Below, one piece after another: positions 1-41,887 of a DNA stretch of 64,000 bases. The notes under the pieces were generated by a model that was not told where the DNA came from, did no database searches, and worked only from the letters and a program-made list of their open reading frames with translations. Within the stretch, counting starts at the first letter, position 1, and every line of letters starts with the position of its first letter. Source of the stretch: an uncultured Enterobacteriaceae bacterium (GTDB lineage: Bacteria > Pseudomonadota > Gammaproteobacteria > Eutrophobiales > Eutrophobiaceae). The DNA lies in assembly GCA_964523895.1 (NCBI GenBank), contig CAZGBJ010000007.1:23000-86999 (forward strand), read 5' to 3'. The translations under genes and the position numbers were made by a program.

Positions 1-948
1 GGCCCGGTTGAAACAGTAATATTAGGTGAGTCGGAAGATATCCTTAAGAAGATACCATTAAATAACTACTCTGTTTCATCAGCAGAAAACACTGGTTTAT
101 CTCTGGCGTTTGAACGTGACCTTTCAGTTAGCTCTCATGCTTTTCTAAAATCACATGTGATGAATGGTCAAGCCGTATTACCTGTTGCGGTTATTATCGA
201 ATGGTTTGCTCACGGTGCATTACATTTGAATCCGGGTATGCAATTTAACGGATTCGATGATTTTCGTGTTTTAAAAGGCGTTACGTTAAAAGCCGACGAA
301 AATATTCGTTTACAAATTCTTGCGGGAAACATTATTCATAAAGGCGATGTCTCTTTAGTTCCTGTTGAGCTACGTTCGAATGAATTATTACATGCCAGCG
401 CGACAATGATTCTGGCTGATAGTTATGAAACTAATGTTTTGCCACAATTAGAGGGTGTAAACGAAAAATATAATAGAAAACAAGGCGAGTATTATCAAAA
501 TGGACAGTTATTTCATGGACATGATTTACAAGGTATTTCAGAAGTAACACATTGCAGTGACAAAGGTATTGTCGCCAATATAAATGCAGCACCACAACCA
601 TCAACATGGATGAATCAACCGATACGTTCGAGCTGGTTAACCGATCCTTTAATTATTGATTCAGCATTCCAGATGATGATCCTTTGGAGCTTTGAAGAAA
701 GCGGAATCGCTTCTTTACCAACAACAATTGCATCGTATCGTCAATATCAACGGAGCTACCCAAAAGATAGTGCAAAAATTATTGCTGAAGTTAATGAACA
801 AACTGATCATAGAGCTAATGCAGCAATAGAGTTTCTTGATAGTAAAGGACAGTTGGTCGCCTTGATGGATGGATATGAATGTGTACGTGACAGCTCATTG
901 CAAATAGCATTCAAGAAAAATAAACTGGATAAAAAAGAAAACGTATAA
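1..948 (+). CDS. pfaA: 3-prime part of a PfaA-like multidomain PKS, C-terminal polyketide-type dehydratase domain. Gene starts upstream of the window.
   Basis: Frame 1 is open from nt 1 into ORF 157..948. HxxxGxxxxP motif (HVMNGQAVLP) and downstream DSAFQ (DxxxQ) motif are typical of PKS DH domains. The position upstream of a PfaC-like gene fits a PfaA C-terminus (KS-AT-ACPn-KR-DH). Confidence 0.6.
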   Translation, partial: GPVETVILGESEDILKKIPLNNYSVSSAENTGLSLAFERDLSVSSHAFLKSHVMNGQAVLPVAVIIEWFAHGALHLNPGMQFNGFDDFRVLKGVTLKADENIRLQILAGNIIHKGDVSLVPVELRSNELLHASATMILADSYETNVLPQLEGVNEKYNRKQGEYYQNGQLFHGHDLQGISEVTHCSDKGIVANINAAPQPSTWMNQPIRSSWLTDPLIIDSAFQMMILWSFEESGIASLPTTIASYRQYQRSYPKDSAKIIAEVNEQTDHRANAAIEFLDSKGQLVALMDGYECVRDSSLQIAFKKNKLDKKENV

Positions 949-978
949 AATAGATTGGGTATTTAGAAGATAGATAAT

Positions 979-2040
979 ATGAAAAAAACAGCATTAATAA
1001 CAGGTATAACGGGACAGGATGGGGCTTATCTTGCCGAATTTTTATTGAACAAGGGATATATTGTTCATGGTATTAAACGAAGAAGTTCGCTGATTAATAC
1101 CGATAGAATAGATCACTTATATCAAGATCCGCATATGTCTGGTCGTAATTTAATTTTACATTATGGTGATATGACTGACTCTACTAGTCTAACGCGCGTT
1201 ATTCAGGAATCCCAACCGGACGAAATTTATAATCTTGCCGCACAAAGTCATGTTGCTGTCTCATTTGAAGAACCGGAATACACGGCTGACTCAGATGCGT
1301 TAGGTCCATTAAGATTACTTGAAGCAATCCGGATTCTTAAGCTTGAAAAGAAGACACGTTTTTATCAAGCTTCAACATCTGAACTTTATGGTTTGGTTCA
1401 GGAAGTGCCACAAAAAGAAACCACCCCATTTTATCCACGTTCACCCTATGGTGTTGCAAAGTTGTATGCTTATTGGATAACGATTAACTATCGTGAAGCT
1501 TATGGTATTTATGCGTGTAACGGTATTTTATTTAATCATGAGTCGCCAGTACGCGGAGAAACCTTTGTTACCAGAAAGATTACTATGGCCTTGAGTCGGA
1601 TAAAGCATGGTTTACAGGACAAGTTATATATTGGCAACCTCAATGCAAAACGTGATTGGGGACATGCACGAGATTACGTCGAGATGCAATGGCTTATGTT
1701 GCAACAAAAAGAGCCGGAAGACTATGTTATCGCTACTGGCGTACAAAATAGTGTTAGGGAATTTATTGAATTCGCTGCCAAAGCGATTGATATAAACATA
1801 ACATGGAAAGGTCAGGATAAAGATGAAAAAGGTTATGATGATGAAGGAAATTGCATTGTCGAAGTTGATCCACGCTACTATCGTCCTGCTGAAGTTGAAA
1901 GTTTGTTAGGTGATCCGACTAAAGCAAGAGAAAATTTAGGTTGGACTCCGGCAACGAGCTTGCAGGGCTTAATTGATGAAATGATGCAGAAAGATATGCA
2001 GCTCGTTGAAAATGAAGTATTAATAAATAACCAAAAGTAA
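979..2040 (+). CDS. gmd: GDP-mannose 4,6-dehydratase
   Basis: Near full-length colinearity with E. coli Gmd from memory (ALITGxTGQDGxYLAEFLL, [20 protein letters not shown], DPRYxRPAEV, LGDPTKA). Confidence 0.9.
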
Positions 2041-2045
2041 ATTTC

Positions 2046-3005
2046 ATGCAAAAGGATTCCCGTATATACGTTGCCGGTCATAACGGTTTGGTAGGAAGTG
2101 CCATTTGCCGAAAGCTAAAAGCCGATCATCATAATAATCTCATTGCACGGTCACACAAAGAACTTGATCTCTGCAATCAATTAGCAGTAGATGCGTTCTT
2201 TAAAGAAGAACAACCCGAATACGTGTTTCTTGCAGCAGCGGTTGTTGGTGGTATACATGCGAATGAAACACAGGCGGTAAGTTTTCTAAGAGATAATCTC
2301 CTGATACAAACACATGTAATTGAAGCGGCTTATAAACATGGTGTAAAAAAAATGGCTTTTTTAGGGTCTACCTGTATCTATCCACGAGATTGTCCGCAGC
2401 CAATTAAGGAAGAATACTTACTAACTGGACCGTTAGAAGAAACTAACCAATGGTATGCGATAGCCAAAATTTCCGGCATTAAACTATGCCAGGCTTACCG
2501 CAAAGAATATGGTTTTAATGCAATCTCATTAATGCCAACCAATCTTTATGGACCAAATGATAATTTTGATTTAATGGACTCGCATGTTTTACCTGCTTTA
2601 ATACGAAAGTTTCATGAAGGTAAAGTCAGCAATAAAGAAGCGGTAGAGATTTGGGGCACTGGTAATCCTTATCGAGAGTTTCTCTATATTGATGATCTGG
2701 CAGATGCTAGTTGCTTTCTTATGCAAAATTATGATGATGACTCAATTATTAATGTTGGAACAGGCCAGGATATTAGTATTAGAGAATTGGCTGAATTAAT
2801 TAAAAAAATAGTTGGTTATAAAGGAAAAATTATTTTTGATTCCTCCAGGCCAGATGGCACTCAAAAAAAATGTTGTGATGTTACAAAATTAAATAATTTA
2901 GGTTGGAAAAGTAAAACGACTTTGCAAGATGGGTTAAAAATAACTTACGATTGGTATATTAACAATTTACCCTCTGAAACTGTTGATATTAAAGCAATAT
3001 TATAA
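2046..3005 (+). CDS. fcl: GDP-L-fucose synthase (GDP-4-keto-6-deoxymannose 3,5-epimerase/4-reductase)
   Basis: Matches E. coli Fcl/WcaG: VAGHxGxVGSAI, YAIAKIAGIKLCxxY, MPTNLYGPxDNF, NVGTGxDxxIRELA. The start lies 6 nt after the gmd stop. Confidence 0.85.
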   Translation: MQKDSRIYVAGHNGLVGSAICRKLKADHHNNLIARSHKELDLCNQLAVDAFFKEEQPEYVFLAAAVVGGIHANETQAVSFLRDNLLIQTHVIEAAYKHGVKKMAFLGSTCIYPRDCPQPIKEEYLLTGPLEETNQWYAIAKISGIKLCQAYRKEYGFNAISLMPTNLYGPNDNFDLMDSHVLPALIRKFHEGKVSNKEAVEIWGTGNPYREFLYIDDLADASCFLMQNYDDDSIINVGTGQDISIRELAELIKKIVGYKGKIIFDSSRPDGTQKKCCDVTKLNNLGWKSKTTLQDGLKITYDWYINNLPSETVDIKAIL

Positions 3006-3010
3006 GTATC

Positions 3011-4006
3011 ATGAAAAATATTCTGGTAACGGGTGGTGCTGGCTATATCGGGTCCCATGCTTGTAAAGCGTTGGCAAAAGCAGGATATAAGCCAATCACG
3101 TTTGATAATCTGTCAACAGGCCATGAGCATGCTGTAAAATGGGGGCCGCTTGAAATTGGTGATATCCGAGATACTGGGAAGCTATCATTAGTATTCGAAC
3201 AGTATAAACCTGAAGCGGTTATTCATTTTGCCTCAAAGATTGTGGTGTCAGAGTCGGTCAAGGCTCCTGATGAATACTATGATAATAATGTTAACGGCAC
3301 CTTAAGTTTGCTTAATGTGATGAAAACGCATTCAGTTAACGCAATTGTATTTTCAAGTACCGCATCGGTATACGGTTATCCTGAATCAAATCCTATCAAC
3401 GAATCTCATCCGTTGAAGCCGATAAATCCTTATGGAAAAACGAAACTGGCGTGTGAATGGCTATTACAGGATTACCAGAGTGCTTATGAAATAAACTATG
3501 TTGCATTAAGGTATTTCAATGCCGCAGGTGCCGATGCAGAAGATGAGTTAGGTGAAGAGCATGAGCCTGAAACACATTTAATACCATTAATTTTAAAAGC
3601 GACAAAAGACAAAACGAGCGTTTCAATTTTTGGCGATGATTATAATACGCTCGATGGGACTTGTATCCGTGATTATATCCATGTTTCAGACTTAGCAGAT
3701 GCCCATATTAAAGCATTGGAATATTTATTTAAACATAACAAATCAGAAACATTTAATCTTGGAACAGGAAAAGGATATTCAGTCAGGCAAGTATTAAATA
3801 CGGTTAAAAAAATCACTTCGGAAGATATTAGTGAAATAAAATCCGATAGAAGGTCAGGTGACCCAGATAGTCTGGTTGCAAAATCAGATTTGGCACAAAA
3901 GACATTAGCGTGGCAACCAAAGTTAAGTGACATAGATAATATAATTAAAACAGCCTGGAAATGGCATATACAAAAGCCTGTTCTTGGCTTGGATGACAAG
4001 TCATGA
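3011..4006 (+). CDS. galE: UDP-glucose (or UDP-GlcNAc) 4-epimerase
   Basis: SDR fold with VTGGAGYIGSH, YxxxK (PYGKTK), RYFNAAGA and DGTCIRDYIHVxDLA, as in GalE. The stop overlaps the start of the next gene (ATGA at 4003-4006). Confidence 0.8.
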   Translation: MKNILVTGGAGYIGSHACKALAKAGYKPITFDNLSTGHEHAVKWGPLEIGDIRDTGKLSLVFEQYKPEAVIHFASKIVVSESVKAPDEYYDNNVNGTLSLLNVMKTHSVNAIVFSSTASVYGYPESNPINESHPLKPINPYGKTKLACEWLLQDYQSAYEINYVALRYFNAAGADAEDELGEEHEPETHLIPLILKATKDKTSVSIFGDDYNTLDGTCIRDYIHVSDLADAHIKALEYLFKHNKSETFNLGTGKGYSVRQVLNTVKKITSEDISEIKSDRRSGDPDSLVAKSDLAQKTLAWQPKLSDIDNIIKTAWKWHIQKPVLGLDDKS

Positions 4007-7000
4007 AAAGTAAACAAGTTGCCGCAATAGTTGGTATTGGCGGCATCTTTCCTGGTGCACGTGATCTGGATGAATTCTGGCAGAATATTTTGAATGGGAA
4101 AGAGTCTGCTATTGATGTAGGTGCTGATCGTTGGCGTTTAGAGCCTGATGAACTGTACTCTCCTGATGTGTCTCCCGATAAAATTAATTCCCGTCGTGCC
4201 TGTTTGATTCAAAATTTTGAATTTAATCCAGAAGGGTTGAATGTTGATGCTGAGTTATTGCAACGTCTTGACCCGATGTATCAAATTTTATTGCATGCAG
4301 GTCGAGATGCCTGGGCTGATGCAAAAACGGATGCTATTAATAAACAACGTGTTGGTATTGTCATCGGTAATATCGCACTTCCTACTGAATCATCCTCACA
4401 ACTTAGTGATGAAATATTTAAACAACTCTTTGAATCACAGTTAGGTATTAATTCAGACCAACAAAAAGAAAAAATAGAGCCTTTAAATAGATATGTTGCC
4501 GGGTTGCCGGGTGGCTTATTGGCAAAAGCTTTAGGTTTTGGTGCAGGTGCTTATACATTAGATGCGGCATGTTCTTCCTCACTTTATTCTCTTAAGTATG
4601 CCATTGATGAATTAGTTGCTGGTCGCACTGATGTTATGTTAGCTGGTGGTTTATCTCGGCCGGATTGTTTGTATACACAAATGGGTTTTTCTCAACTCAA
4701 TGCCATTTCAAAGTCAGGTCGTTGTTCACCGTTTGATAGCAAAGCTGATGGTCTTGTAGTAGGTGAGGGAGCAGGTATTTTTGTACTTAAGCGATTAAGC
4801 GATGCCATCGAACAAGATGATCATATCTATGCCACGATAGAAGGTATTGGCCTTTCAAATGATATCGAAGGCAATATCATGTCGCCAGATTCGGAAGGTC
4901 AAGGCCGTGCAATGCAATCGGCTTATGAAATGGCCGGGTGGAAACCAAATCAAGTACAACATATTGAATGTCATGGCACAGGAACACCTGTTGGTGATGG
5001 CGTTGAATTCACCTCATTAAAAAATCTATGGCAAAGTCATAAGGTAGAGGGTGAATGTGTTATTGGATCAGTAAAAAGTAATGTCGGTCACTTATTAACA
5101 GCTGCTGGTGCTGCGGCATTAATGAAAACATTGTTAGCAATGAAACACGGTGTGTTACCGCCAACAGCAAATTATGAAAACCCTTCCAGTAAAATAGATT
5201 TAACAAATAGTCCATTCAAAGTTCTGGATAAAGCTGAGACGTGGAGTGTAAAAAACAATAGTCCAAGACGTGCTGCGATTAGTGGTTTTGGATTTGGTGG
5301 TATCAATGCGCATGTTCTTTTACAAGAGTATTTGCCAGAAACAATTAAAACGTTACCTTTAACGAGTATCGAAACTACGCATTCTGATAAATGTGATATT
5401 GCTATTGTAGGAATGGAATCACGACTAGGACCATGGAATGAACAGAATGATTTCGATAACGCATTATTATTTGGTTCAAATAAAGATGTTACTCATCCAA
5501 ACAATTGGTGGGGAGCAGATGGCAAAGCGTATCAGGGATATCTAATTGATGAAGTTAAAGTGCCTTTAGGTCGCTATAGAATACCTCCGGCTGAATTAAA
5601 AGAGATGTTGCCGCAGCAATTGTTAATGCTTGAAGTTGCAGCTAATGCATTGGATGACGCGAAACTTTCCGAGCTATCAAAAGAACAACAATGTCGTACA
5701 GGTGTTTTTATCGGTATTGCACTTGATTTGAATACAACTAATTTCCATTTTCGCTGGATGCAAAAGAAATATGCAAGAGAATGGCTGGAGAGATTAGGCA
5801 TTGAATTAAATAATATTGAATTAGATGAATGGGTAGAAAACCTTAAACAGTCATTTGGTCCATCATTATCTGCAAATCGAACTATGGGTGCGTTAGGCGG
5901 TATTGTTGCCAGTCGAATTGCCCGTGCTTTCCGAGTTGGTGGTCCCGCTTTTACTATTTCTTCTGAAGAAACATCGGGGTTACGAGCACTGGAATCCGGT
6001 GTGCGTGCCTTGCAACAGCAAGAACTGGATCAGGTAATTATAGGTGCTGTTGATCTGGCTAGTGATATTAGAGCTGTTAAAGCTAATGCAGATCAGATTG
6101 ATACTATTGCTGATGGAGCTACTGCCTTTGTCTTGAAACGTCACGAAGATGCCGTGCGTGATGGCGATAATGTTTATGCATTAATAAAAGGTATTGGTGT
6201 TGCGTCGGCAGGAGGCTGTGATGCAAAGGTTGAAGAATCTGGAATGGTTGCTGCTATTCAAAATGCTTGTTCAGATGCACAATGTCATTTAGATGCTATT
6301 GATTTAGTAAGTCAATCTTCTGTGAATGATGAAGTTGATATTCCTGCATTAGAAAATGCAACTATTAATACTTTCTCGCTTGGTCATTCGGGTGCAGCAA
6401 ATGGCTTAATGAATGTAGCGAATACAGTGACGCTATTAAATCAGTGTCTTCTGCCAAATGAGAATAATTCAAATGCGCGTTACTGGTTAAAAGATCGAAT
6501 AAAAGGCCCGAGACAGAGTTTAGTAAACAGTACAAGTATTGACGGTGTGTGTGTCAGTGTTGTTTTACAACAAGCCCAGAATAAAACACAGGCTAATATT
6601 GGTCTTAAAAATGTTAACTCTAAATTATTTTCGTTGTCAGCCAAGAATAAAGAATTATTAATAAATAAAATTAAAGCGTTATCTTTTGTTGATGTTGTTG
6701 AAGATACTAAAGAAAAATTTCGGGCTGTTATTCTTGTTAATAACGAAAATGAATTAAATTTAGCTCGCGAAGAACTCATTGCTAGCATACAAAAAAATAA
6801 CTCAATTGATAATGGACGCTGTTTTTATTCAGCGTCTCCTTTAGCGAAAGAAGGGAAAGTTGCCTTTGTCTATCCCGGCTCAGGCAATCATTTCTTCGGT
6901 ATGGGACAAGAGTTAGGTGTTAGTTTTCCTGAAGTATTGGAAAATTTAGATCAAGAAAATGAAATGCTATCTTCACAATTTGCAAAAGGTCGCTTTTGGC

Positions 7001-10000
7001 AAAATCACCATCATGAGGATAATCCTGGTAAAGAATTAAGCCATGAAGAAGTTATTTTCGGACAAGTGTGGTTGGGTACTTTTGTTAGTGATGTTGTAAC
7101 CAGCTTTGACGTTAAACCTGATGCCGTTATTGGTTATAGTCTGGGTGAGACTGCCGGTTTTTTCTCAACACGGACATGGACGGCTCGTGATGAGATGTTA
7201 AAACGAATTCAACAAAGTACTTTGTTTACAGAAGAATTGGCCGGCCCTTGTAAATCTGTACAAAAAGCATGGGGTACGGATAAACCTGTTAATTGGGCAC
7301 TGGGTGTAATTAATACCAGTGCCGAAAAAGTTAAAACGGTATTAAAAAAGTATGAACATGTTTATTTATTAATTATTAATACACCAAATGAATGTGTTAT
7401 TGGTGGAGACAAAACCAAATTAAACAAGGCTGTTAAAGAACTTGCTGTACAATATCATCCCTTGTCAGGTGTAACGACGGTGCATTGTGAAGTCGCTAAG
7501 CCTGTTGAAAAAGCGTATCGGGATTTACATATTTTTGAAACGACGCCGGCAAAAGGCGTTACTTTTTATAGTGGAATACGTGGTGGTGCATACGAGGTAA
7601 CACAGAATTCAGCCGCTGACTCTATTCTGGACCAAGCATTGGCTCCTTTCGATTATACCAAGGTGATTAATAGTGCCTATGAAGATGGTGTACGTCTGTT
7701 TATTGAAATGGGGCCAGGTGGTTCTTGTGCAAGAATGATCGATCAGATCCTTGAAGAGAAATCGCATTATGCGAAAGCAGTTTGTGTTAAAGGACAAAAC
7801 AGCGTTGATAATGTATTGCAAACACTAGCTAGATTATATGTTGAAGGCGTGGATGTGGATTTTTCAAAATTACAAACTAATAATGTTAAACAAGGAAAGA
7901 AATATAATAGCTATATTAGTGTTAAAACAGGTGGCGATCCGTTTAAAGTTCCACAACTTCCTATGTCTAAATCCGATGTTGTTGAAGAGATACATATTGA
8001 AAAAAATAACGTCGCAACAGATGTAATGTCATTACCAATGACTGCAAATGGTGACTATCAACCAACAATCGAGCCAATAATTCAACAAATGCAGCTCGCT
8101 GAACGAGCTCGTTCTGAAGCACAAGAAGCATTTCTGAGAGTTAGTCAGGGTATGACCGAGACTTTGACTCAAGCTATTAATATGCAAATGCAACTTTTGG
8201 ATAATGGCAACATTGATTTATCGCAAGTAATAATTAATCAAGAACAGTCTGATAGAGAAGAAACTCAAAGTAAGGATTGTCTGTTTGATCGTGAACAATG
8301 TATGGAAATAGCAATCGGATCTATTAGAAAAGTACTAGGTTCAGCATTTGCGGATATTGATACTTATCCCACAAGAGTACGTTTGCCTGATGAACCTTTA
8401 ATGTTAGCTGATCGTATTATAAGTATCGAAGGTGAAGCTGATTCTTTAAAAAACAACCCCAATACAAATGGGCGCGTTATCACTGAACATGATGTCTTGC
8501 CGGGAGCCTGGTATCTGGATCAGGGACGTATACCAACCTGTATCGCTGTTGAAGCAGGACAAGCCGATTTATTTTTATCCGGCTATTTAGGTATTGATCA
8601 TATATCCAAAGGACTGGCGGTTTATCGTTTATTAGATGCAAAAATTACCTTTCATGGATCCTTACCGGAAGCAGGACAAACTATTCATTATGATATTCGT
8701 ATCGATGAGTTCTTCCGACAAGATGACACTTATCTATTTCGTTTTAATTTTGAAGGTAGCGTCGCCTGCACGGATGCAGGCGGTAGAGTCGAGTCTGGAA
8801 CAGAGACCGGGATTGGTAGACCATTACTAACCATGACAGAAGGTTGTGCCGGTTTCTTTACTCAACAAGAATTAGATGCAGGAAAAGGCATCGTCTTAAC
8901 TAATATTGAAAAACAAAAAGCTCAGGGAATATTTACAAGTGACTGGAATGAATTAGTTGCTATGCAGAATGAAAGTTATAACGATGAACAGTTAAATGCG
9001 TTACGGCAAGGTGATTTAGCAACTTGTTTTGGTGGGGCATTTAATAATATTGAATTGAATAATCCAGTGGGTTTACCCAGTGGTCGCATGACATTAGTTC
9101 ATCGTATTTTAAATCTTGATCCTAAAGGTGGTCGTTTTGGAATAGGTCAAATTACTGGTGAAGCAGACATTCATCCTGATGACTGGTTCTTAACTTGTCA
9201 CTTTGTTGATGATCGCGTGATGCCTGGAACATTAATGTATGAATGTTGTTTGCATACCCTGCGTGTTTATTTATTAGGCATGGGTTGGATAGGTGAAACA
9301 GATGAGTTTGTTTATGAACCGATTATTGGCGAAGTGAGTCAGTTGAAATGTCGAGGACAAGTCACGGAAGAAACTAAAGCCGTTCAATATGAAATTACAT
9401 TAAAAGAAATTGGCTATCGTAATGATGGAACACCTTATGTATTAGCGGATGCATTAATGTACGGCGATCACCGTGCCATAGTGCAAATGAAAAATATGTC
9501 TGTTCAATTAAGCGGCTTAAAACGCGATAAATTGGAAGCGCTTTGGGAAAAGCAAATTAATAATATGAGTGGTTCTGAAATGGAGATTTTCAGAGGTGCT
9601 CATACAAAACAAGTTTTATTCGATAACGATTCGATTTTAGCTTTTGCTATTGGTAAGCCTTCCGAAGCCTTTGGTGATAAATACAAAATATTTGATTCCG
9701 AACGCAAGATTGCACGTCTACCAGGGCCGCCATACAAATTTCTTGATCGAATCGTTTCTATTAAAGATTGTGAACAATGGGTATTGAAAGCCGGTGGCGT
9801 TATCGAAGCTGAATATGATGTCCCCGTAGATGAATGGTACTTTACTGAAGATAATCAACCTTATATGCCGTTTGCCGTATTGCTTGAAGTGGCTTTGCAA
9901 CCTTGTGGCTGGTTAGCGGCATATTTAGGTTCAGCATTAAGCAGTGATATTGATATTTCATTTAGAAATTTAGGTGGCAAGGCAACACAATACATAAAAG

Positions 10001-10704
10001 TAACTCCAGAGATTGGGACGCTCACTACAAAAGTAAAGATGACCAGTGTCTCGCAGTCTGGCGGTATGATTATTCAGACGTATGATTACGAAATGACGTC
10101 AGATCAAGGGTTGGTATATAAAGGCGATACTAATTTTGGTTTCTTTTCAAAACAGGCATTGGCTGATCAAATTGGTATTCGCGATGCCAAACCTTATAGT
10201 CCAACAGAATTAGAACAGTCTCGAAGCAAATCCTTTGTTTATTCAGTTGATGCACCGATGCCTGCGGATATGATGCGTATGGTCGATGAGATTAGTCACT
10301 ATGATCCTGAAGGTGGGCCAAATAACCTGGGTTTTATAGAAGGAAAAGCAAGTGTAAAACAAGATGCCTGGTTTTTTAAAGCCCATTTTTATGAAGATCC
10401 GGTTTGGCCAGGTTCGTTAGGATTAGAATCTTTCATGCAGTTATTAAAAGCTTTTGCATGGGAGCGATGGCAGGGTGAACTACGGATCGGCGATTTTTCT
10501 TTTGATAGTATGGCTTTGCAGCAGGTTCACCAATGGGTATACCGAGGTCAAATCCTGCCGATTGATGAAAAAGTGACGGTTCAGGCGGTCATTACCGAGA
10601 TTGATGATGAGTCCAAAACCATTAAAGCGGATGGTTTTTTGACTGTTGATGGACGAATTATCTATCAGATGAAGAACTTTGCGCTTAGAATAACCTCCCT
10701 ATGA
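4003..10704 (+). CDS. pfaC: PfaC-like PUFA/secondary-lipid synthase subunit. KS (Cys190, nt 4570), KS-beta/CLF-like domain without active Cys, acyltransferase (GYSLGE, nt 7132-7149), then two FabA-type dehydratase domains (CHFVDDRVMPG at nt 9196; AHFYEDPVWPG at nt 10381).
   Basis: DAACSSS, HGTGT and GHLLTAAG motifs of the KS. A second KS-like fold has ISSEETSG in place of the Cys motif. An AT GxSxG motif is present. Two HxxxD/MPG FabA-like cores are present. The size (2233 aa) and domain order fit PfaC with an inserted PfaB-like AT. Confidence 0.8.
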   Translation: MKSKQVAAIVGIGGIFPGARDLDEFWQNILNGKESAIDVGADRWRLEPDELYSPDVSPDKINSRRACLIQNFEFNPEGLNVDAELLQRLDPMYQILLHAGRDAWADAKTDAINKQRVGIVIGNIALPTESSSQLSDEIFKQLFESQLGINSDQQKEKIEPLNRYVAGLPGGLLAKALGFGAGAYTLDAACSSSLYSLKYAIDELVAGRTDVMLAGGLSRPDCLYTQMGFSQLNAISKSGRCSPFDSKADGLVVGEGAGIFVLKRLSDAIEQDDHIYATIEGIGLSNDIEGNIMSPDSEGQGRAMQSAYEMAGWKPNQVQHIECHGTGTPVGDGVEFTSLKNLWQSHKVEGECVIGSVKSNVGHLLTAAGAAALMKTLLAMKHGVLPPTANYENPSSKIDLTNSPFKVLDKAETWSVKNNSPRRAAISGFGFGGINAHVLLQEYLPETIKTLPLTSIETTHSDKCDIAIVGMESRLGPWNEQNDFDNALLFGSNKDVTHPNNWWGADGKAYQGYLIDEVKVPLGRYRIPPAELKEMLPQQLLMLEVAANALDDAKLSELSKEQQCRTGVFIGIALDLNTTNFHFRWMQKKYAREWLERLGIELNNIELDEWVENLKQSFGPSLSANRTMGALGGIVASRIARAFRVGGPAFTISSEETSGLRALESGVRALQQQELDQVIIGAVDLASDIRAVKANADQIDTIADGATAFVLKRHEDAVRDGDNVYALIKGIGVASAGGCDAKVEESGMVAAIQNACSDAQCHLDAIDLVSQSSVNDEVDIPALENATINTFSLGHSGAANGLMNVANTVTLLNQCLLPNENNSNARYWLKDRIKGPRQSLVNSTSIDGVCVSVVLQQAQNKTQANIGLKNVNSKLFSLSAKNKELLINKIKALSFVDVVEDTKEKFRAVILVNNENELNLAREELIASIQKNNSIDNGRCFYSASPLAKEGKVAFVYPGSGNHFFGMGQELGVSFPEVLENLDQENEMLSSQFAKGRFWQNHHHEDNPGKELSHEEVIFGQVWLGTFVSDVVTSFDVKPDAVIGYSLGETAGFFSTRTWTARDEMLKRIQQSTLFTEELAGPCKSVQKAWGTDKPVNWALGVINTSAEKVKTVLKKYEHVYLLIINTPNECVIGGDKTKLNKAVKELAVQYHPLSGVTTVHCEVAKPVEKAYRDLHIFETTPAKGVTFYSGIRGGAYEVTQNSAADSILDQALAPFDYTKVINSAYEDGVRLFIEMGPGGSCARMIDQILEEKSHYAKAVCVKGQNSVDNVLQTLARLYVEGVDVDFSKLQTNNVKQGKKYNSYISVKTGGDPFKVPQLPMSKSDVVEEIHIEKNNVATDVMSLPMTANGDYQPTIEPIIQQMQLAERARSEAQEAFLRVSQGMTETLTQAINMQMQLLDNGNIDLSQVIINQEQSDREETQSKDCLFDREQCMEIAIGSIRKVLGSAFADIDTYPTRVRLPDEPLMLADRIISIEGEADSLKNNPNTNGRVITEHDVLPGAWYLDQGRIPTCIAVEAGQADLFLSGYLGIDHISKGLAVYRLLDAKITFHGSLPEAGQTIHYDIRIDEFFRQDDTYLFRFNFEGSVACTDAGGRVESGTETGIGRPLLTMTEGCAGFFTQQELDAGKGIVLTNIEKQKAQGIFTSDWNELVAMQNESYNDEQLNALRQGDLATCFGGAFNNIELNNPVGLPSGRMTLVHRILNLDPKGGRFGIGQITGEADIHPDDWFLTCHFVDDRVMPGTLMYECCLHTLRVYLLGMGWIGETDEFVYEPIIGEVSQLKCRGQVTEETKAVQYEITLKEIGYRNDGTPYVLADALMYGDHRAIVQMKNMSVQLSGLKRDKLEALWEKQINNMSGSEMEIFRGAHTKQVLFDNDSILAFAIGKPSEAFGDKYKIFDSERKIARLPGPPYKFLDRIVSIKDCEQWVLKAGGVIEAEYDVPVDEWYFTEDNQPYMPFAVLLEVALQPCGWLAAYLGSALSSDIDISFRNLGGKATQYIKVTPEIGTLTTKVKMTSVSQSGGMIIQTYDYEMTSDQGLVYKGDTNFGFFSKQALADQIGIRDAKPYSPTELEQSRSKSFVYSVDAPMPADMMRMVDEISHYDPEGGPNNLGFIEGKASVKQDAWFFKAHFYEDPVWPGSLGLESFMQLLKAFAWERWQGELRIGDFSFDSMALQQVHQWVYRGQILPIDEKVTVQAVITEIDDESKTIKADGFLTVDGRIIYQMKNFALRITSL

Positions 10705-27663: not shown

Positions 27664-28671
27664 ATGAGAATACTCATCACAGGTGCCGCAGGATTTATCG
27701 GTTTTCATACTTCTCAGTATTTACTTAATCGAGGTGATTCAGTAATAGGTATTGATAATCTCAATGACTATTATGATCCTTCATTAAAAGAAGCACGTTT
27801 ATCTCAATTAAAAAACAACAGTAATTTCAGTTTCCATAAAATAGATATTATCGATAAAGATGCCGTCGATAATGTGTTTAAATCAGAGTCTCCTGATTAT
27901 ATCATTCATCTGGCTGCTCAGGCAGGAGTTCGCTATTCATTAAAAAACCCTTACGCATATATTGACTCAAATATTACGGGATTTATGAATATCCTTGAAG
28001 CTTGCCGGCATAATCCGGTTAAACATCTGACATTCGCTTCTTCCAGTTCTGTTTATGGTTCAAATACACGAATGCCTTTTAGTGTAAATGATAATGTTGA
28101 CCACCCACTTTCATTATACGCAGCGACAAAAAAATCAAATGAGTTAATGGCACACACATATAGTCATTTATATAATATCCCTGTTAGCGGCTTACGATTT
28201 TTTACTGTCTATGGTCCATGGGGAAGACCTGATATGGCATTATTCATATTTACTAAAAAAATACTAAATGGTGAAAGAATAGATGTATTTAATAATGGAC
28301 AGCATAAACGTGACTTTACTTATATTGATGATATTGTAGAAGGTGTCGTTCGTGTTTCTGACAATATTGCTATCAGTAATCCTGATTGGAATAGCGATAA
28401 CCCTGACCCTGCCACAAGTAAAGCACCTTATCGTTTATATAATATTGGTAATAACAAACCGGTTGAGTTGATGTATTTCATTGAGCTAATTGAAAAGAAT
28501 CTCGATAAAAAAGCGGATAAAAATTATTTGCCACTGCAACCTGGTGATGTGCCTGAGACTTATGCCAATGTTGATGCACTAATTGATTATGTTGATTATT
28601 CTCCGTCAACTTCGATTGAATCAGGTATAGAGAATTTTATAAAGTGGTATAAGGATTATTATAAAGTATGA
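27664..28671 (+). CDS. NAD-dependent nucleotide-sugar epimerase, Cap1J/WbnF-like UDP-glucuronate 4-epimerase
   Basis: [11 protein letters not shown], YxxxK (YAATK) and [13 protein letters not shown] are typical of UDP-GlcA 4-epimerases. Confidence 0.65.
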
Positions 28672-29963
28672 GTGAAATTGACAATCGGACTATATCCGTT
28701 ATCGGTTTAGGTTATGTTGGCTTGCCTGTTGCAGTTGCGTTTGGTGAAACTTCAAAAGTTATTGGTTTTGATATAAATCAAAAAAGAATATCTGAACTTA
28801 TCGATGGTGTAGATAAAACAGACGAAGTCATAGCTTCCGAACTTGATTCTGCTGATATTATCTTTACATCAGATTTAAACGAGTTGTCGAATGCTGACTT
28901 TCATATTGTTGCGGTTCCTACTCCAATAAACAGTTCTAAAAAACCTGATTTAAAACCACTTTTATCTGCATCAAAAACAGCAGGCCAGATCTTAAAAAAA
29001 GGCGATATCGTAGTTTATGAGTCTACAGTTTATCCCGGGGCTACGGAAAATGAATGTGCTTCTATTTTAGAAGAGGAGTCTGGTTTGGTCAGCGGCAAAG
29101 ATTTTTTTCTGGGCTATTCTCCAGAAAGAATAAACCCCGGCGATAAGAAACATACTTTTAAAACAATTAAAAAAGTAGTTTCCGCACAAGATGAAAATAC
29201 ATTACAAATTGTTGCTGATGTTTATTCATCCGTTGTCGATGCAGGTGTATATAAGGCTGCGTCAATAAAAGTAGCAGAAGCGGCTAAAGTAATTGAGAAT
29301 ACACAACGTGACTTGAATATTGCACTAATGAATGAACTGGCGGTTTTATTTAAACGCATGGATATTGATACACATGACGTACTGGAAGCTGCTGGCACCA
29401 AGTGGAATTTTTTACCATTCGAGCCCGGGCTGGTTGGTGGTCATTGTATTGGTGTTGATCCCTATTATTTGACATATAAATCAGAATCGTTGGGCTATAC
29501 ACCACAAGTTATTCTTTCAGGAAGAGAGATAAATGACAGTATGGGTAAATTTATTGCCGGTTCACTGATAGAGAACCTGGAGAAAGGTGGGAAAGAACTT
29601 GAGGAAATTGTTATCACTATACTGGGTATAACATTTAAAGAAAATGTTCCCGATATTCGTAATACAAGAGTGACCGATATAATAGATGAGCTTGGTCTGT
29701 ACCCTGTAAAAATACAGGTTTATGATCCTTGCGCTGATAGTATTGATGTTAGGGATGAATATCAGATTGATTTAGTTGATGAGTTTGATGATTTAGAAAA
29801 GGCTGATGCCGTTATTCTCGCTGTTCCGCATGATGATTTTATAACACAAGGCTGGAAACTTGTTTCTGAATTGTTACCATCCAAAGATGGTGTTGTTTAT
29901 GATATCAAGAGTATCCTTGATAGAAAGAATAAGCCTGAAGATATTAATCTCTTTCGTCTATAA
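28668..29963 (+). CDS. TviB/WbpA/WbpO-like UDP-N-acetylhexosamine 6-dehydrogenase
   Basis: Long colinear identity stretches to Vi-polysaccharide TviB from memory: [23 protein letters not shown], [26 protein letters not shown], [26 protein letters not shown]. Confidence 0.8.
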
Positions 29964-29990
29964 ATGTATGTTGTTAATTAAGGAAAATAA

Positions 29991-31295
29991 ATGAAAGTCA
30001 CCATGTTAGGTTGTGGTTATGTCGGGCTTGTTTCGGGTACTTGTTTTGCTGAGTTTGGTGCCAACGTCACCTGTTTTGATGTCGACAAAACCAAGGTGAA
30101 AAAATTATTGGAAGGTATTATACCAATATATGAACCGGGTCTTGATGATTTGGTTAAAAAGAATATTGATCAGGGGCGACTTTCTTTCTCGCATGATCTG
30201 AATGACTGTATTTCTGATTCTGATCTTGTTTTTGTAGCTGTAGGTACACCGACAAGACGAGGAGATGGTCATGCTGATTTAAGTTATGTCTATCAAGCTG
30301 TGCAGGATATTGCACCATTCCTAAAAAATTATACTGTGATTGTTGATAAATCGACTGTGCCGGTTGGTACGGCAAGAAACGTTAAACGCATTATTGCCGA
30401 AACAAATCCAGATGCTGATTTTGATGTTGCATCAAATCCTGAGTTTCTTCGAGAGGGCGCAGCGATTACTGATTTTATGCGTCCGGATCGTGTTGTGATT
30501 GGAGTCGAAAATAAACGTGCAGAAAGCGTATTAAGAGAATTATATCGACCTATTAACTTAATTGAATCGCCAATATTATCAACTGATCTTGAAAGTGCAG
30601 AACTAATTAAATACGCATCGAATGCATTTTTAGCAACCAAGGTTAGCTTTATTAATGAAATATCTGTTCTTTGTGAAGAAGTAGGTGCAGATGTTCATGC
30701 CATTGCCAAAGGCATGGGTTTGGATGGACGAATTGGCCGTAAGTTTTTACACCCCGGTCCAGGTTATGGTGGTTCATGTTTCCCAAAAGATACTCAGGCA
30801 CTGGTGCGAACGGCTCAGGAACATGGTGTATCAAGTCGTATTGTAGAAACGGTTATTGAAGTCAATGAAGCACAGAAAGCAAGAATGATAAAAAAAATTC
30901 GCAGTGCGTTAGGGGGAAATGAAAATGGTAAAACGATAGCTGTTTTGGGTCTAACCTTTAAACCTGAAACAGATGATATGCGCGATGCACCTTCTCTCGC
31001 TATATTGCCAAAACTGGTTGAAAATGGTTGCCAAATAAATGCACATGATCCTCAAGGTATCAATGAAGCAAAATTATTATTGCCCTCTGAAATTCAGTAT
31101 CATGATGGTATCTATTCAACTATAAACAATGCTGATGCCGTGGTATTGATGACAGAATGGAATATGTACCGCAATCTGGATATGGATGTCATTAAAGAGA
31201 AACTAAACAAACCTGTATTTGTTGATCTTCGTAATGTCTATGAACCCGATGCAATGAAATCACTGGGTTTTGATTATTATTGTATTGGCAGATAA
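29991..31295 (+). CDS. ugd: UDP-glucose 6-dehydrogenase
   Basis: MLGCGYVGLVSG N-terminus and GGSCFPKD catalytic Cys motif. 434 aa. Confidence 0.8.
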   Translation: MKVTMLGCGYVGLVSGTCFAEFGANVTCFDVDKTKVKKLLEGIIPIYEPGLDDLVKKNIDQGRLSFSHDLNDCISDSDLVFVAVGTPTRRGDGHADLSYVYQAVQDIAPFLKNYTVIVDKSTVPVGTARNVKRIIAETNPDADFDVASNPEFLREGAAITDFMRPDRVVIGVENKRAESVLRELYRPINLIESPILSTDLESAELIKYASNAFLATKVSFINEISVLCEEVGADVHAIAKGMGLDGRIGRKFLHPGPGYGGSCFPKDTQALVRTAQEHGVSSRIVETVIEVNEAQKARMIKKIRSALGGNENGKTIAVLGLTFKPETDDMRDAPSLAILPKLVENGCQINAHDPQGINEAKLLLPSEIQYHDGIYSTINNADAVVLMTEWNMYRNLDMDVIKEKLNKPVFVDLRNVYEPDAMKSLGFDYYCIGR

Positions 31296-31306
31296 AACAT
31301 AGATTA

Positions 31307-31927
31307 ATGAATAAAGTAACGAATCAACATACAATCTGGCATGCGCCTTCAGTCTATCGAAAAGACAGGGAAGAAATGAATGGACACAAAAGTGTCATTG
31401 TCTGGTTTACTGGTCTATCAGGCGCTGGTAAATCCACAGTAGCACATGCATTAGAAGATAGATTACATAAAAACAAAATCAGAACTTTTGTTCTTGATGG
31501 AGATAATGTCAGGCGCGATCTATGTAAAGACCTTGGTTTTTCAGATGATGATCGAACCGAGAATATCAGACGAATCGGTGAAGTAAGTAAACTCATGATG
31601 GAAGCCGGTGTTATAGTTTTGACTGCATTTATTTCCCCCTTTATTAAAGATAGACAAATTGTCAGGGAATTGGCTGCTAAAGGTGAGTTTATCGAAGTGT
31701 ATTGTGATGCTTCACTCGATGTTTGTGAGTTACGTGATGTAAAAGGACTATACAAAAAAGCTCGAGCAGGTGAAATTCCCGAGTTTACAGGGATATCTTC
31801 ACCGTATGAATATCCAAACAACCCTGAAATTGTACTCGATACTGCAAACCAATCGGTAGAAAATGCAGTTGAATGTATAATTGCTTACCTTTGTGAAAGA
31901 CAAATTATAACTATTAATCGTTTATAA
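31307..31927 (+). CDS. cysC: Adenylyl-sulfate (APS) kinase. The supplied ORF start at 31280 overlaps ugd, so the start is probably the Met at 31307.
   Basis: VxWFTGLSGAGKSTVA P-loop, LDGDNVR, and FISPFxxDRQ. Colinear with E. coli CysC. Confidence 0.85.
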   Translation: MNKVTNQHTIWHAPSVYRKDREEMNGHKSVIVWFTGLSGAGKSTVAHALEDRLHKNKIRTFVLDGDNVRRDLCKDLGFSDDDRTENIRRIGEVSKLMMEAGVIVLTAFISPFIKDRQIVRELAAKGEFIEVYCDASLDVCELRDVKGLYKKARAGEIPEFTGISSPYEYPNNPEIVLDTANQSVENAVECIIAYLCERQIITINRL

Positions 31928-31935
31928 AATATCTT

Positions 31936-32436
31936 ATGAAGTTCTGGTATTTAATCCATTCAAAACCTAAAGATGAAAAAGTAGCTCAGGAAAACCTTGA
32001 GAGGCAGGGTTATGAAACCTATTTGCCGTTAATTCTTGGTAGAGCAAAAAAGCGTGGTAAAACAATAAAATCGATTCAACCGATGTTCCCTAGATATCTA
32101 TTCATTCATTTGAGCGATCAAACTGATGACTGGGGGCCTATTCGTTCAACATTGGGTGTCTCTAGTTTGATCCGATTTGGTTTGACGCCAGCAAGAGTAC
32201 CGGAGGCGCTAATAAATTCATTAAAGAATAATGAAAATATTCAAGGAATTCATGAGCTTCCGACTAAACCTTTATCTGCTGGAGATAAATTACTCATCGT
32301 TGAAGGTCCATTTGAGGGATATGAAGCGACCTTATTTAGCCAAAAATCAGATGATAGAGTTATCGTACTATTAAAAATTGCTGAAAATTATGTAAAAGTT
32401 AAGTTAGAACAATCACTTATAGAGCCATTAAGCTAA
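31936..32436 (+). CDS. rfaH: RfaH-type operon-specific transcription antiterminator (NusG paralog)
   Basis: MKFWYLIHSKPKDEKVAQENLERQGYETYLPL matches the RfaH N-terminal NGN domain pattern (WYLLxxKxxxExxAxxxLxRQ) and the size is 166 aa. A canonical ops site is present 0.8 kb downstream. Confidence 0.7.
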   Translation: MKFWYLIHSKPKDEKVAQENLERQGYETYLPLILGRAKKRGKTIKSIQPMFPRYLFIHLSDQTDDWGPIRSTLGVSSLIRFGLTPARVPEALINSLKNNENIQGIHELPTKPLSAGDKLLIVEGPFEGYEATLFSQKSDDRVIVLLKIAENYVKVKLEQSLIEPLS

Positions 32437-32520
32437 TATTATTTTGTCTAATGAAGGAGTGTAACTTCTTCATTTTTTAAAAATCTACTATATTTTTCAC
32501 TATATCTAGTAGTTCATTTC

Positions 32521-33174
32521 ATGAACGCTCTGGTATATACTGTTCAGATAATGAACAATCAGCAAAAAGAAGATACCGCAACGCTAGAAATTCTACAAAC
32601 TATTGAAAATAAAGGGAATTTTACGCAGCGACATCTGGCTGATCAACTTGGCGTTGCTCTAGGTTTAGCAAATTCTTATCTTAAGCGATGTGTCCATAAA
32701 GGTTTGGTCAAAATTCATCAAGCGCCAGCGAACCGATATCTCTATTACCTAACACCAAAAGGCTTTGCTGAAAAAAGTCGATTAACCACCGAATATCTAA
32801 GTAGCTCATTTAACTTCTATCGTCGTGCAAGTGCTTCGTGCTCTGATGTGTTCGAGCAATGTCATGAGCTTGGACATCATAAGGTGTTGTTATGTGGATT
32901 ATCTGAACTTGCAGAGATTGCGAGTCTTAGAGCGAGAGAACAAGGTATCGATATTGTCGGTACGCTTACTCTAGATTCAAAGTCAAAAATGTTTCTTGGC
33001 TTGCCCGTTTGGAATTCATTTGATTTGTTATCCGATTTTGATGCCTGTGTGGTTACCGAAGTGGCAGAACCGAAAAAACTTATTGAATATATGAGTACAC
33101 AAGTTGACTCAGATATTGTTTTTGTACCTGATATTTTAGGAATAAAAAAAGAATCACAAAATAACGCAGCCTGA
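32521..33174 (+). CDS. Putative winged-helix transcriptional regulator with an uncharacterised C-terminal domain
   Basis: The N-terminal 70 aa resemble a MarR-like wHTH (LEILQTIENKGNFTQRHLADQLGVALGLANSYLKRCVHKGLV). The rest is unassigned. Confidence 0.35.
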   Translation: MNALVYTVQIMNNQQKEDTATLEILQTIENKGNFTQRHLADQLGVALGLANSYLKRCVHKGLVKIHQAPANRYLYYLTPKGFAEKSRLTTEYLSSSFNFYRRASASCSDVFEQCHELGHHKVLLCGLSELAEIASLRAREQGIDIVGTLTLDSKSKMFLGLPVWNSFDLLSDFDACVVTEVAEPKKLIEYMSTQVDSDIVFVPDILGIKKESQNNAA

Positions 33175-33214
33175 TTTTTTATATATTAAAAATCAGGCTG
33201 CGTTATTTTGTGAT
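33153..33214. terminator. Exceptionally long perfect hairpin (27-bp stem, 8-nt AT loop) overlapping the stop codon at 33172. Candidate bidirectional terminator or insulator.
   Basis: ATCACAAAATAACGCAGCCTGATTTTT (33153-33179) is the exact reverse complement of AAAAATCAGGCTGCGTTATTTTGTGAT (33188-33214). Flanked by A- and T-runs. Confidence 0.6.
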
Positions 33215-33223
33215 TTATTAAAA

Positions 33224-33262
33224 CACCTAGTGTCAACTTTGACACTAGGTGGCGGTAGCGTG
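33224..33262 (+). promoter_or_regulatory. JUMPstart-like element. A 12-13-bp perfect hairpin (33224-33251) abuts an exact ops site GGCGGTAGCGTG (33251-33262), 64 nt upstream of the ABC transporter start.
   Basis: The 12-mer equals the E. coli ops consensus recognised by RfaH, and rfaH is encoded just upstream. Hairpin is CACCTAGTGTCAA/TTGACACTAGGTG. Confidence 0.7.
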
Positions 33263-33325
33263 CATAAAGCCACATCTAGTTGGTATGAAATATAGATAAT
33301 GTCAAAAAAATATTCTTAAGTACAA

Positions 33326-36098
<2,773 letters not shown>

Positions 36099-36099
<1 letters not shown>

Positions 36100-37259
36100 T
36101 GATTCCTTATAGTCACCAAGAAATTAGTCAAGTAGATATTGATGCTGTTATTAAGGTACTTAAGTCTGACTTCTTGACTCAGGGACTAATGGTCCCGAAG
36201 TTTGAAAGTGCAGTAGCTGAGTATACCGGTGCAAAGCATGGAGTTGCGGTAAATAGTGGCACATCAGCATTACATATAGCTTGTTTGTCACTTGATCTTG
36301 GCGCTGGCGACATTCTTTGGACAAGCCCCATATCTTTTGTCGCCTCAGCAAATTGCGGTCGTTATTGTGGCGCCGATGTTGATTTTGTTGATATTAATCC
36401 TGATACATGGAATATCGATATCTTTGCTCTAAAGGATAAGCTTGTTCAAGCTCGAAAGGAAAAACGACTTCCAAAAGTTGTGGTGCCTGTTCATTTTGCG
36501 GGACAGCCTCCTGAACAAGAAAAGATATGGGAACTAGCTCAGGAGTTTGGCTTTCGTATTCTAGAAGACGCATGCCATGCTATTGGCGCTTCACGAAAAG
36601 GTGAGCGTGTGGGTAGTTGTCGATGGTCTGATATAACCGTTTTTAGTTTTCATCCGGTCAAAATTATTACCACGGGTGAAGGTGGAATGGCTATGACAAA
36701 TGATGAAGAGCTTGCTTGGAGAATGGGGATATTGCGTTCTCATGGAATTTCTAGAGAACCTGAGCGAATGACGAAGAAACATGAAGGCCCATGGTATTAC
36801 GAACAGCTTGAATTAGGCATGAATTATCGGATGACTGATATACAGGCAGCATTGGGAATAAGCCAATTGTCACGAATAGATTACTTCATTGAACAGAGAA
36901 ATTTGTTGGCAAAGAAATATAATGAGAGTTTGATAGGCTTACCATTAAAGTTAACAACAGTTTTGCCGGATAATCGTTCAGCATTTCATCTTTATGTTAT
37001 TCGACTAATGACAGAAAAGGTAAGTTGTTCCCATCGTGAAATTTTTGAATCATTTCGAGAAGAAGGTATCGGAGTTAATCTTCATTATATGCCAATTCAT
37101 TTGCAACCTTATTATAAAAAAATGGGTTTTAGAAATAATTTATTTATGGAAGCTGAAAAATATGCCAAAGAGGCAATCACCTTACCCATGTATCCAGATT
37201 TAACAGATGAACAACATAGTTTTGTTATTAATAAAATTAAAGAACATATAAATGTCTGA
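36099..37259 (+). CDS. pseC: UDP-4-amino-4,6-dideoxy-N-acetyl-beta-L-altrosamine aminotransferase (DegT family)
   Basis: DegT/DnrJ fold with the PseC-like N-terminus IPYSxQxIxxxDIDAVxxVLKSDFLTQG and the PLP Lys region FSFHPVKIITTGEGG. Adjacent to pseB. Confidence 0.75.
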
Positions 37260-40674: not shown

Positions 40675-40711
40675 TTGCATCGCATTTAAAGGTGGAATTT
40701 TAATAAATCAA

Positions 40712-41839: not shown

Positions 41840-41887
41840 TTATCTTGTCGTTAAAAATCATGGGCGTTAATTTATAATTGTTTTTAG

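Follow-up and report, generated by a model that had tools for sequence, protein, structure and literature searches.

In an uncultured Enterobacteriaceae bacterium, three sugar-nucleotide genes (gmd, fcl and a galE-type gene) lie inside an operon for a lipid synthase, between its pfaA-like and pfaC-like genes. The window analyzed here is the whole stretch of 64,000 nucleotides that carries them (GenBank assembly GCA_964523895.1, contig CAZGBJ010000007.1, positions 23,000 to 86,999 of the forward strand), and coordinates refer to it unless a related locus is named. A first-pass annotation, made from the letters of the window, had left the linkage of this trio to polyketide synthase (PKS) genes unexplained and had offered three possibilities: coordinated envelope remodeling, a fucosylated glycolipid, or a recent insertion.

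The sugar-nucleotide trio and its operon

The trio and the genes of the operon around it are laid out as follows, where KS, CLF, AT and DH denote ketosynthase, chain-length factor, acyltransferase and dehydratase domains, and PPTase a phosphopantetheinyl transferase:

1..948, + strand: 3′ end of a PfaA-like gene (PS-DH dehydratase region), which runs off the window start; Pfam PS-DH/PKS_DH_N, TIGR02813 positions 2276-2568
949..978, + strand: 30-nt spacer from the pfaA stop to the gmd start, read directly from the sequence
979..2040, + strand: gmd, GDP-mannose 4,6-dehydratase; TIGR01472, 580 bits (cutoff 415)
2046..3005, + strand: fcl, GDP-L-fucose synthase (GDP-4-keto-6-deoxymannose 3,5-epimerase/4-reductase); NF047922, 474 bits (cutoff 500)
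3011..4006, + strand: galE-type UDP-hexose 4-epimerase; TIGR01179, 439 bits (cutoff 262)
4003..10704, + strand: PfaBC-fusion-like protein of 2233 aa, KS-CLF-AT-DH-DH; Pfam ketoacyl-synt, Acyl_transf_1, and FabA in three stretches
10701-11900, + strand: oleA; NCBIfam/Pfam best match
11925-12815, + strand: oleB; NCBIfam/Pfam best match
12927-14582, + strand: oleC; olefin beta-lactone synthetase, 657 bits (equivalog cutoff 850)
14579-15577, + strand: oleD; 2-alkyl-3-oxoalkanoate reductase, 476 bits (equivalog cutoff 580)
15574-16296, + strand: HetI-type PPTase; Pfam ACPS

The names that the first-pass annotation gave to the three genes are borne out by both profile and structure-sequence matches, and its reading-frame coordinates are exact. 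Gmd scores above the curated cutoff of its equivalog hidden Markov model (HMM) and aligns over its full length with PDB 7kf3 (584 bits), an alignment in which TSELYG and YGVAK (YxxxK) supply the Thr/Glu and Tyr-x3-Lys of the short-chain dehydrogenase/reductase (SDR) fold. The Fcl match to NF047922 spans profile positions 2-304 of 308 at a score just below the cutoff, and the protein also aligns full length (residues 5-307, 333 bits) with PDB 1bsv, the E. coli epimerase/reductase GMER. The catalytic residues of E. coli GMER are Ser/Cys, Tyr-x3-Lys and His; in the window Fcl they are found within GSTCIYP, YAIAK and SHVLP, as read in the alignment with 7anh. The GalE-type protein likewise exceeds its equivalog cutoff, matches PDB 8wxk at 340 bits, and holds the Ser and Tyr-x3-Lys signature in SSTASVYG and YGKTK. 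Its ‘gatekeeper’ position (Tyr299 in E. coli), which appears to be the Leu in ...GDPDSLVAK..., hints that N-acetylated substrates may be used and serves as a lead only.

All three genes are intact and are predicted to encode working enzymes, for GDP-L-fucose synthesis (Gmd, then Fcl) and for an interconversion of the UDP-glucose/galactose type (GalE). The ratio of nonsynonymous to synonymous substitution (dN/dS) against relatives is ~0.03-0.05 for gmd, ~0.04 for fcl and ~0.07 for galE, which resembles oleA and oleD; these ratios are qualitative only, because of saturation in dS and because several pairs yielded no estimate. Same-order exact copies of the window genes are found on 10 metagenome contigs, and identical proteins recur across several metagenomes. 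Samples with an exact match to the sequence are JGI 3300009481, 3300009703 and 3300011013, together with SRR6056609 and SRR5211068. A pseudogene reading of the trio was rejected on its catalytic motifs and, qualitatively, on dN/dS values of 0.03-0.07.

The genes are also closely packed. The spacers measure 30 nt (pfaA-gmd), 5 nt (gmd-fcl) and 5 nt (fcl-galE), which corrects the 31, 6 and 6 nt of the first-pass annotation, while the ATGA overlap that it placed at the entry to pfaC stands, the TGA of galE and the ATG of pfaC overlapping by 4 nt. No promoter-like or terminator-like site falls in the spacers in a scan of positions 1-17000. Promoter-like matches over that stretch number 43, fewer than the 59 +/- 8.5 of shuffled sequences, and terminator-like matches are at chance level; since the scan is at or below the shuffled level, it neither supports nor excludes internal promoters. 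Because the spacers are 30, 5 and 5 nt, galE overlaps pfaC by 4 nt and no terminator-like site intervenes, the trio probably shares an mRNA with pfaA and pfaC, as had been proposed from the letters of the window. The trio is indeed embedded in the lipid operon, with the PfaA-like gene on one side and the fused PfaBC-like gene on the other, and the earlier statement that the block lacks a glycosyltransferase (GT) also holds, in that a Pfam domain search of 1-16296 finds no GT domain.

The trio separates pfaA from a KS-CLF-AT-DH2 fusion, which is followed by oleA, oleB, oleC, oleD and a PPTase gene; the order of these lipid genes is common to 60 or more loci. TIGR02816 (the PfaB family) matches the PfaBC-like protein at residues 949-1283, and relatives of the window have a full-length PfaA of ~2200 aa with the PfaD enoyl reductase before it. 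The NCBIfam calls in the ole stretch, which further include PRK09258 (478 bits) and a haloalkane-dehalogenase-like alpha/beta hydrolase, are best matches, several of them under their equivalog cutoffs. The arrangement is like that of the ‘secondary lipid synthase’ of Type I (pfaD, pfaA, fused pfaBC), which is often ole-linked, has been proposed to feed olefin synthesis, and is described from Geobacter and Gemmata (Shulse and Allen 2011, PMC3098273): the window has a PfaBC fusion and then oleA-D and the PPTase, and in its relatives pfaD and a full-length pfaA lie upstream. Coupling of Pfa and Ole yields a C31:9 polyunsaturated hydrocarbon (PMC6463001). By analogy with these two studies, the product of the operon would be a long-chain polyunsaturated hydrocarbon.

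A variable junction between pfaA and pfaC

The site of the trio was compared across ~100 related loci, gathered by searching a genome collection with the PfaBC protein and metagenomes with the PfaA C-terminus; flanks were 10 kb, and the window proteins were run by tblastn against all fetched loci. In 61 distant loci, whose PfaA is 38-48% identical, pfaBC comes directly after pfaA, with a median gap of 63 nt, and oleA, oleB and oleC are usually next. Homologues of gmd, fcl and galE are absent by tblastn from all of these distant pfaA-pfaC(-ole) loci (0/61), which places the three genes outside the core lipid pathway. The organism-named loci in this group belong to Fimbriiglobus/Planctomycetes (Gemmataceae, 39-43% identity), which are the nearest organism-named homologues outside the Gammaproteobacteria and share the Type I gene order; the other loci at 38-48% are unassigned metagenome contigs.

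The close relatives (PfaBC 67-83% identical) are all metagenome-assembled genomes (MAGs) of uncultured marine Gammaproteobacteria, labeled at NCBI as ‘Gammaproteobacteria bacterium’ or ‘Thiotrichaceae bacterium UBA7357/UBA7359/UBA973’. Unlike the described clusters, in which pfaA adjoins pfaBC and sugar genes are lacking, this clade has cargo at both the pfaA|pfaC and the oleA|oleB junctions. The variable pfaA|pfaC junction is confined, among the loci compared, to this one clade. It is empty (~16-39 nt) in ~8-10 lineages (L007, L013, L014, L016, L018/L033/L082/L083, L024/L079, L028, L034) and occupied by gmd-fcl in ~13 (the window, L011/L080, L031, L008/L081, L022/L078/L088, L077, L084, L085, L156-L160), and elsewhere it holds other cargo: a PIN toxin-antitoxin pair (L010), unknown open reading frames (ORFs; L076), or a PD-(D/E)XK nuclease gene (L087). 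The first-pass annotation had held that orthologous loci never carrying the sugar genes would indicate a local rearrangement, which is not what the clade presents; among the gmd-fcl lineages just listed, L160 carries the same full gmd-fcl-galE trio, and the window galE is 79% identical to the L160 galE at the same position. The genes that accompany gmd-fcl, or that lie at the pfaC end of the junction, differ from lineage to lineage, and include adenylylsulfate (APS) kinase and tetratricopeptide repeat (TPR) genes:

L160: pfaA-gmd-fcl-galE, then Bac_transf, a methyltransferase, GT4, a Wzx-like flippase and GT4
L156, L077: gmd-fcl, then Bac_transf
L157, L022: Wzy_C, a FecR-like gene and epimerases after gmd-fcl
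L008: rmlACDB ahead of gmd
L011: APS kinase at 8775-9389, next to fcl
L085, L159: SulP sulfate permease (L085:6691-8328; L159:11990-13615), next to fcl
L084: minimal form, pfaA-gmd-fcl-pfaC
L009, L021, L026: GT1, WecG, Wzy_C, a porin, Wza, Wzc, CpsB and a TPR gene directly 5′ of pfaC, with pfaA beyond the reach of the flank

Features of polysaccharide assembly are thus present at the same site in L160, L156/L077 and L157, and those of the Wza/Wzc type in L009/L021/L026. Positions 979-4006 of the window hold three SDR enzymes only, and neither a complete Wzx/Wzy nor a complete Wza/Wzc locus; being without any assembly gene, the window cassette by itself falls short of a complete polysaccharide locus. 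The recurrence of APS kinase or SulP by fcl, together with an APS kinase elsewhere in the window, hints at a sulfated, fucose-containing polysaccharide.

Two of the relatives, L077 (14934-20786) and L156 (13629-19646), encode a ~2000-aa protein after gmd-fcl-Bac_transf, with a subtilase S8 domain, cadherin-like/Big domains, thrombospondin type 3 repeats and a lactonase-type beta-propeller; pfaC is not within 10 kb there. In L157, a second Gmd-like SDR (4549-5538), 44% identical to Gmd, lies between gmd and fcl and may make a different GDP-6-deoxyhexose.

The beginning of PfaC also varies across the clade. At empty sites its N-terminus reads M[A/T]ERIAIVG (L028/L007/L013:9986 among those compared), and in six other non-empty clade loci PfaC starts with [M/L]K-x-x-x-[K/Q]-IAIVG, often from a TTG start (L011:9980, L031/L008/L022:10001). 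The window PfaC starts with MKSKQVAAIVG (4003-4035). That there are two start classes, and that they track the state of the junction, points to a pair of old haplotypes more than to many separate deletions. The patchy distribution of empty and occupied sites could come from repeated loss or from recombinational exchange between the conserved pfaA and pfaC flanks.

The TPR gene offers a further mark of how the junction has changed. It encodes 222-232 aa and lies directly 5′ of pfaC in L008 (9328-9996), L009 (7638-8336), L021 and L026, and C-terminal remnants of it are found in L011/L080 (L011:9610-9834), L022:9511-9795, L031:9578-9835, L012 and L076; the window has neither the gene nor a remnant 5′ of pfaC. 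Because the TPR gene and the downstream island genes are gone, and galE overlaps pfaC, the window appears to represent a derived and reduced state that kept three precursor genes only, packed against pfaC.

The association of pfaA with gmd and fcl is ancient. A protein search with Gmd found clade orthologs that are 80-94% identical, and in 5/5 of those sampled, which were picked only for long contigs and identity spread, gmd lies directly 3′ of pfaA. Gmd and Fcl distances follow PfaA distances (Mantel r 0.75 and 0.79, p = 2e-4; the comparison was also run on a smaller set), and a Gmd+Fcl tree has the same major splits as PfaA, at 100% bootstrap. In a neighbor-joining (NJ) tree of the PfaA C-terminus, gmd-fcl is present in the basal subclade (L084, L158, L085, L159) and throughout the main subclade. 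The trio has a GC content of 0.36-0.39 and a third-position GC content (GC3) of 0.25-0.31, as do its neighbors, with a codon-usage correlation of 0.83-0.91, and dS between lineages is saturated, at or above 1. Since the divergence of Gmd and Fcl parallels that of PfaA, with a native composition and a low dN/dS, the linkage is old and not recent, having been co-inherited vertically with pfaA under purifying selection. The trio has none of the marks of a recent island that were looked for (atypical composition or codon usage, mobility genes, incongruence with its flanks), and recent horizontal transfer of the trio was rejected on native composition and co-divergence with PfaA.

Possible destinations of the sugar nucleotides

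We consider it likely that the trio is the precursor head of a clade-specific, variable surface-polysaccharide island within the pfa-ole operon, and that it feeds glycosyltransferases encoded elsewhere, not the lipid. The island would sit between pfaA and pfaC of a pfaD-pfaA-pfaBC-oleABCD-PPTase operon in uncultured marine Gammaproteobacteria, and in the lineage of the window it would have been reduced to gmd, fcl and galE. These genes would most likely be transcribed with pfaA and pfaC on one mRNA, and their sugar products would most likely pass to glycosyltransferases encoded elsewhere, for example in the locus at 27.6-64 kb of the window. The outcome would be a fucose/galactose-containing cell-surface polysaccharide, with the trio most likely playing no role in the lipid product and the Pfa/Ole hydrocarbon left unmodified.

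That second locus is a candidate consumer of the sugar nucleotides made by the trio. Its main features are:

27664..63776, + strand: large same-strand surface-polysaccharide locus, from precomputed Pfam matches on identical metagenome contigs
31280-31927: APS kinase
31936-32436: NusG paralog
40712-41839: GT28_C/PseG-like gene
42511-43428: FabH-like gene, then a small carrier protein, inside the polysaccharide locus
60929-61825: GT2 glycosyltransferase

The locus further contains two UDP-Glc/GDP-Man dehydrogenases, an ABC exporter, rml-like genes and methyltransferases, and it has genes of the nonulosonic-acid type, namely NeuB, a pair of CMP-sugar synthetase-like genes, DegT aminotransferases and acetyltransferases. 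Three of its ORFs (50055-51692, 59655-60908 and 61893-63776) have no Pfam match. Between 27664 and 63776 there is no own copy of gmd, fcl or galE: the SDRs at 27664, 35098 and 52453 have only 22-27% identity to clade GalE-type proteins, and the one at 27664 has 25-26% to clade Fcl.

Variable O-antigen and capsule loci between conserved flanks provide the closest comparison, such as those between galF and gnd in E. coli and between hemH and gsk in Yersinia pseudotuberculosis (PMC7305143, PMC5399914). Like them, the clade island has nucleotide-sugar genes (gmd, fcl, galE, rml) at one end, variable transferase, flippase, polymerase and export content, a fixed site and a patchy presence. Unlike them, it is flanked by two genes of one lipid operon, so that the operon is interrupted; many of its sites are empty; and the window keeps three precursor genes only, without an initiating transferase, GT, Wzx or Wzy.

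Several points weigh against assigning the trio to such an island. A fucosyltransferase or galactosyltransferase was not identified in the window, and most of the related loci are MAGs or metagenome contigs, in which assembly errors are possible. Many internal nodes of the PfaA C-terminus NJ tree are weakly supported and empty sites are scattered across it, and the number of gains and losses is therefore uncertain. The adjacency of pfaA and gmd is moreover kept where pfaC has moved to a distance of 10 kb or is not in view (L158, L159, L156), with a type II secretion cluster after fcl in L158 and four opposite-strand genes intervening before pfaC in L159. Adjacency of such persistence could reflect selection for co-expressing gmd-fcl with pfaDA, and not neutral hitch-hiking.

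One alternative treats this adjacency as adaptive co-regulation, in which the sugar supply would be expressed with the Pfa/Ole lipids for coordinated envelope remodeling (e.g. in cold or under pressure) and the two products would stay chemically separate. The spacing from pfaA to gmd is ~27-101 nt in most lineages, the adjacency is found in ~13 lineages and in each of the five sampled orthologs, and it holds though the genes after fcl differ or pfaC is displaced; in the window, the spacing would enforce a shared transcript. However, ~8-10 lineages of the clade have an empty junction and still have the lipid operon, and other genes separate pfaA from gmd in L031, L008 and L022. The adjacency may also persist neutrally, because a spacer of 30-100 nt is a tiny target for rearrangement. 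We think it unlikely that coordinated envelope remodeling is what holds the genes together.

Another alternative is a glycolipid. A long-chain Pfa/Ole intermediate (the 2-alkyl-3-hydroxy acid of OleD, or a Pfa acyl chain) would be fucosylated or galactosylated by a GT encoded elsewhere, or would serve as the lipid anchor of the polymer. Clusters that combine PKS and sugar genes for glycolipids are known elsewhere, as in the hgl genes for cyanobacterial heterocyst glycolipids and in the mycobacterial phenolic glycolipids that use GDP-fucose. The window is like these systems in that its type I PKS-like lipid genes share a locus with sugar-nucleotide genes; the trio is nested among the PKS genes, is probably co-transcribed with them, and belongs to a pfaD-pfaA-gmd-fcl linkage that is old and conserved. 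The hgl and mycobacterial systems, however, have dedicated GTs and a hydroxylated lipid acceptor, neither of which is evident in the window. A co-located dedicated GT is absent from 1-16296, as it is from the minimal cassettes L084, L011 (which adds APS kinase) and L085 (which adds SulP). Where relatives do have GTs at this site, these accompany Bac_transf, Wzx, Wzy and Wza/Wzc, that is, polysaccharide assembly based on undecaprenyl phosphate. The 61 distant pfa-ole loci have no sugar genes, and a complete oleABCD set predicts a hydrocarbon without a hydroxyl to glycosylate (PMC6463001). With polysaccharide assembly following gmd-fcl in relatives, and minimal cassettes that lack a GT, the fucosylated glycolipid suggested by the first-pass annotation is disfavored, and we regard it as distinctly improbable. 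No report of pfa genes linked to fucose genes was found in the literature searched, the coverage of which is incomplete.

A variant of this idea is that pfaD-pfaA-gmd-fcl is a selected unit, in which a Pfa-derived lipid, polyunsaturated or of very long chain, would be physically joined to, or needed to anchor or export, a fucose-containing and possibly sulfated glycan. If true, it would explain why gmd-fcl stays by pfaA even in loci from which pfaC and the ole genes have moved away, although we give this variant the same small chance as the glycolipid itself.

It is less probable still that the trio is a decaying remnant, the leftovers of a lost polysaccharide locus that are no longer useful. 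The window cassette is indeed the most reduced gmd-fcl-galE form, with the downstream island and the TPR gene gone, but its frames are intact, its catalytic motifs are present, dN/dS stays at 0.03-0.07, and identical proteins occur across several metagenomes. Least credible of all is the recent insertion that the first-pass annotation had also listed, in which a sugar cassette, either foreign or transposed, would have entered the operon of this single genome only lately: although the junction is a hotspot, with toxin-antitoxin (PIN, HipA, Fic) and PD-(D/E)XK nuclease genes in relatives, an insertion of this kind is contradicted by the Mantel correlations, by GC, GC3 and codon usage that match the neighbors, by the same-order exact copies on 10 metagenome contigs, and by gmd-fcl lying at the same site in the basal and main subclades and co-diverging with pfaA at a saturated dS of at least 1, with no integrase, transposase, tRNA or repeats noted in the cassette.

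Second cargo site, remaining features and implications

The operon has a second cargo site at oleA|oleB, where the window has a gap of 24 nt (11901-11924). About ten relatives have a dinB-type (IMS family) DNA polymerase gene at this position, and other cargo there consists of HicB or AbiEii toxin-antitoxin genes, TelA, an ion channel and an SBF transporter. Examples of oleA|oleB cargo are located at:

L007: 17838-18944
L009: 16676-19721
L020: 5862-8768
L019: 6223-9546

As the cargo at oleA|oleB is plainly unrelated, a gene's position in the operon is no sign that it takes part in the lipid pathway. On the other side of the operon, hopanoid genes lie immediately upstream of pfaD on the minus strand in relatives (L156:38-1087, L158:1-1246, L159:1-1287). 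An SQS/PSY-family gene is found upstream of pfaD in 4/4 loci that reach that far, and a squalene-hopene cyclase is also present in L158 and L159; the pfa/ole set therefore lies within a larger lipid neighborhood.

Between the operon and the polysaccharide locus, the window contains two further groups of genes:

16.3-20.3 kb: cNMP-binding protein, aminotransferase, an apparently split methyltransferase, cytochrome P460 and a Sel1 protein
20.4-26.3 kb: housekeeping genes, namely a partial gene, an aconitase-type gene (leuC-like), a leuD-like gene, a methyltransferase and a class-I aminoacyl-tRNA synthetase (tRNA-synt_1c, gltX-type)

The split methyltransferase consists of two overlapping ORFs (125 and 170 aa) at 18411-19198 with weak methyltransferase matches, in place of which relatives have a single ORF of ~257 aa (e.g. 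L007:25392-26165). A frameshift, a pseudogene or a sequencing error is a possible cause of the split.

If the trio is, as we favor, the head of a surface-polysaccharide island, then the puzzle of its linkage is resolved, in that the sugar genes would belong to a surface-glycan island and not to the hydrocarbon pathway, and gene-cluster mining tools should therefore not call a glycosylated polyketide or lipid cluster at this locus. The architecture would be an unusual one, with a hypervariable polysaccharide island and the oleA|oleB cargo site long tolerated inside a large lipid-synthase operon. Should pfaD-pfaA-gmd-fcl prove to be such a selected unit, its product would represent a new class of glycoconjugate dependent on a polyunsaturated fatty acid (PUFA) synthase. 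If co-transcription of the trio with pfaA and pfaC is true, the supply of membrane lipid and of surface glycan would be coupled transcriptionally in this organism.

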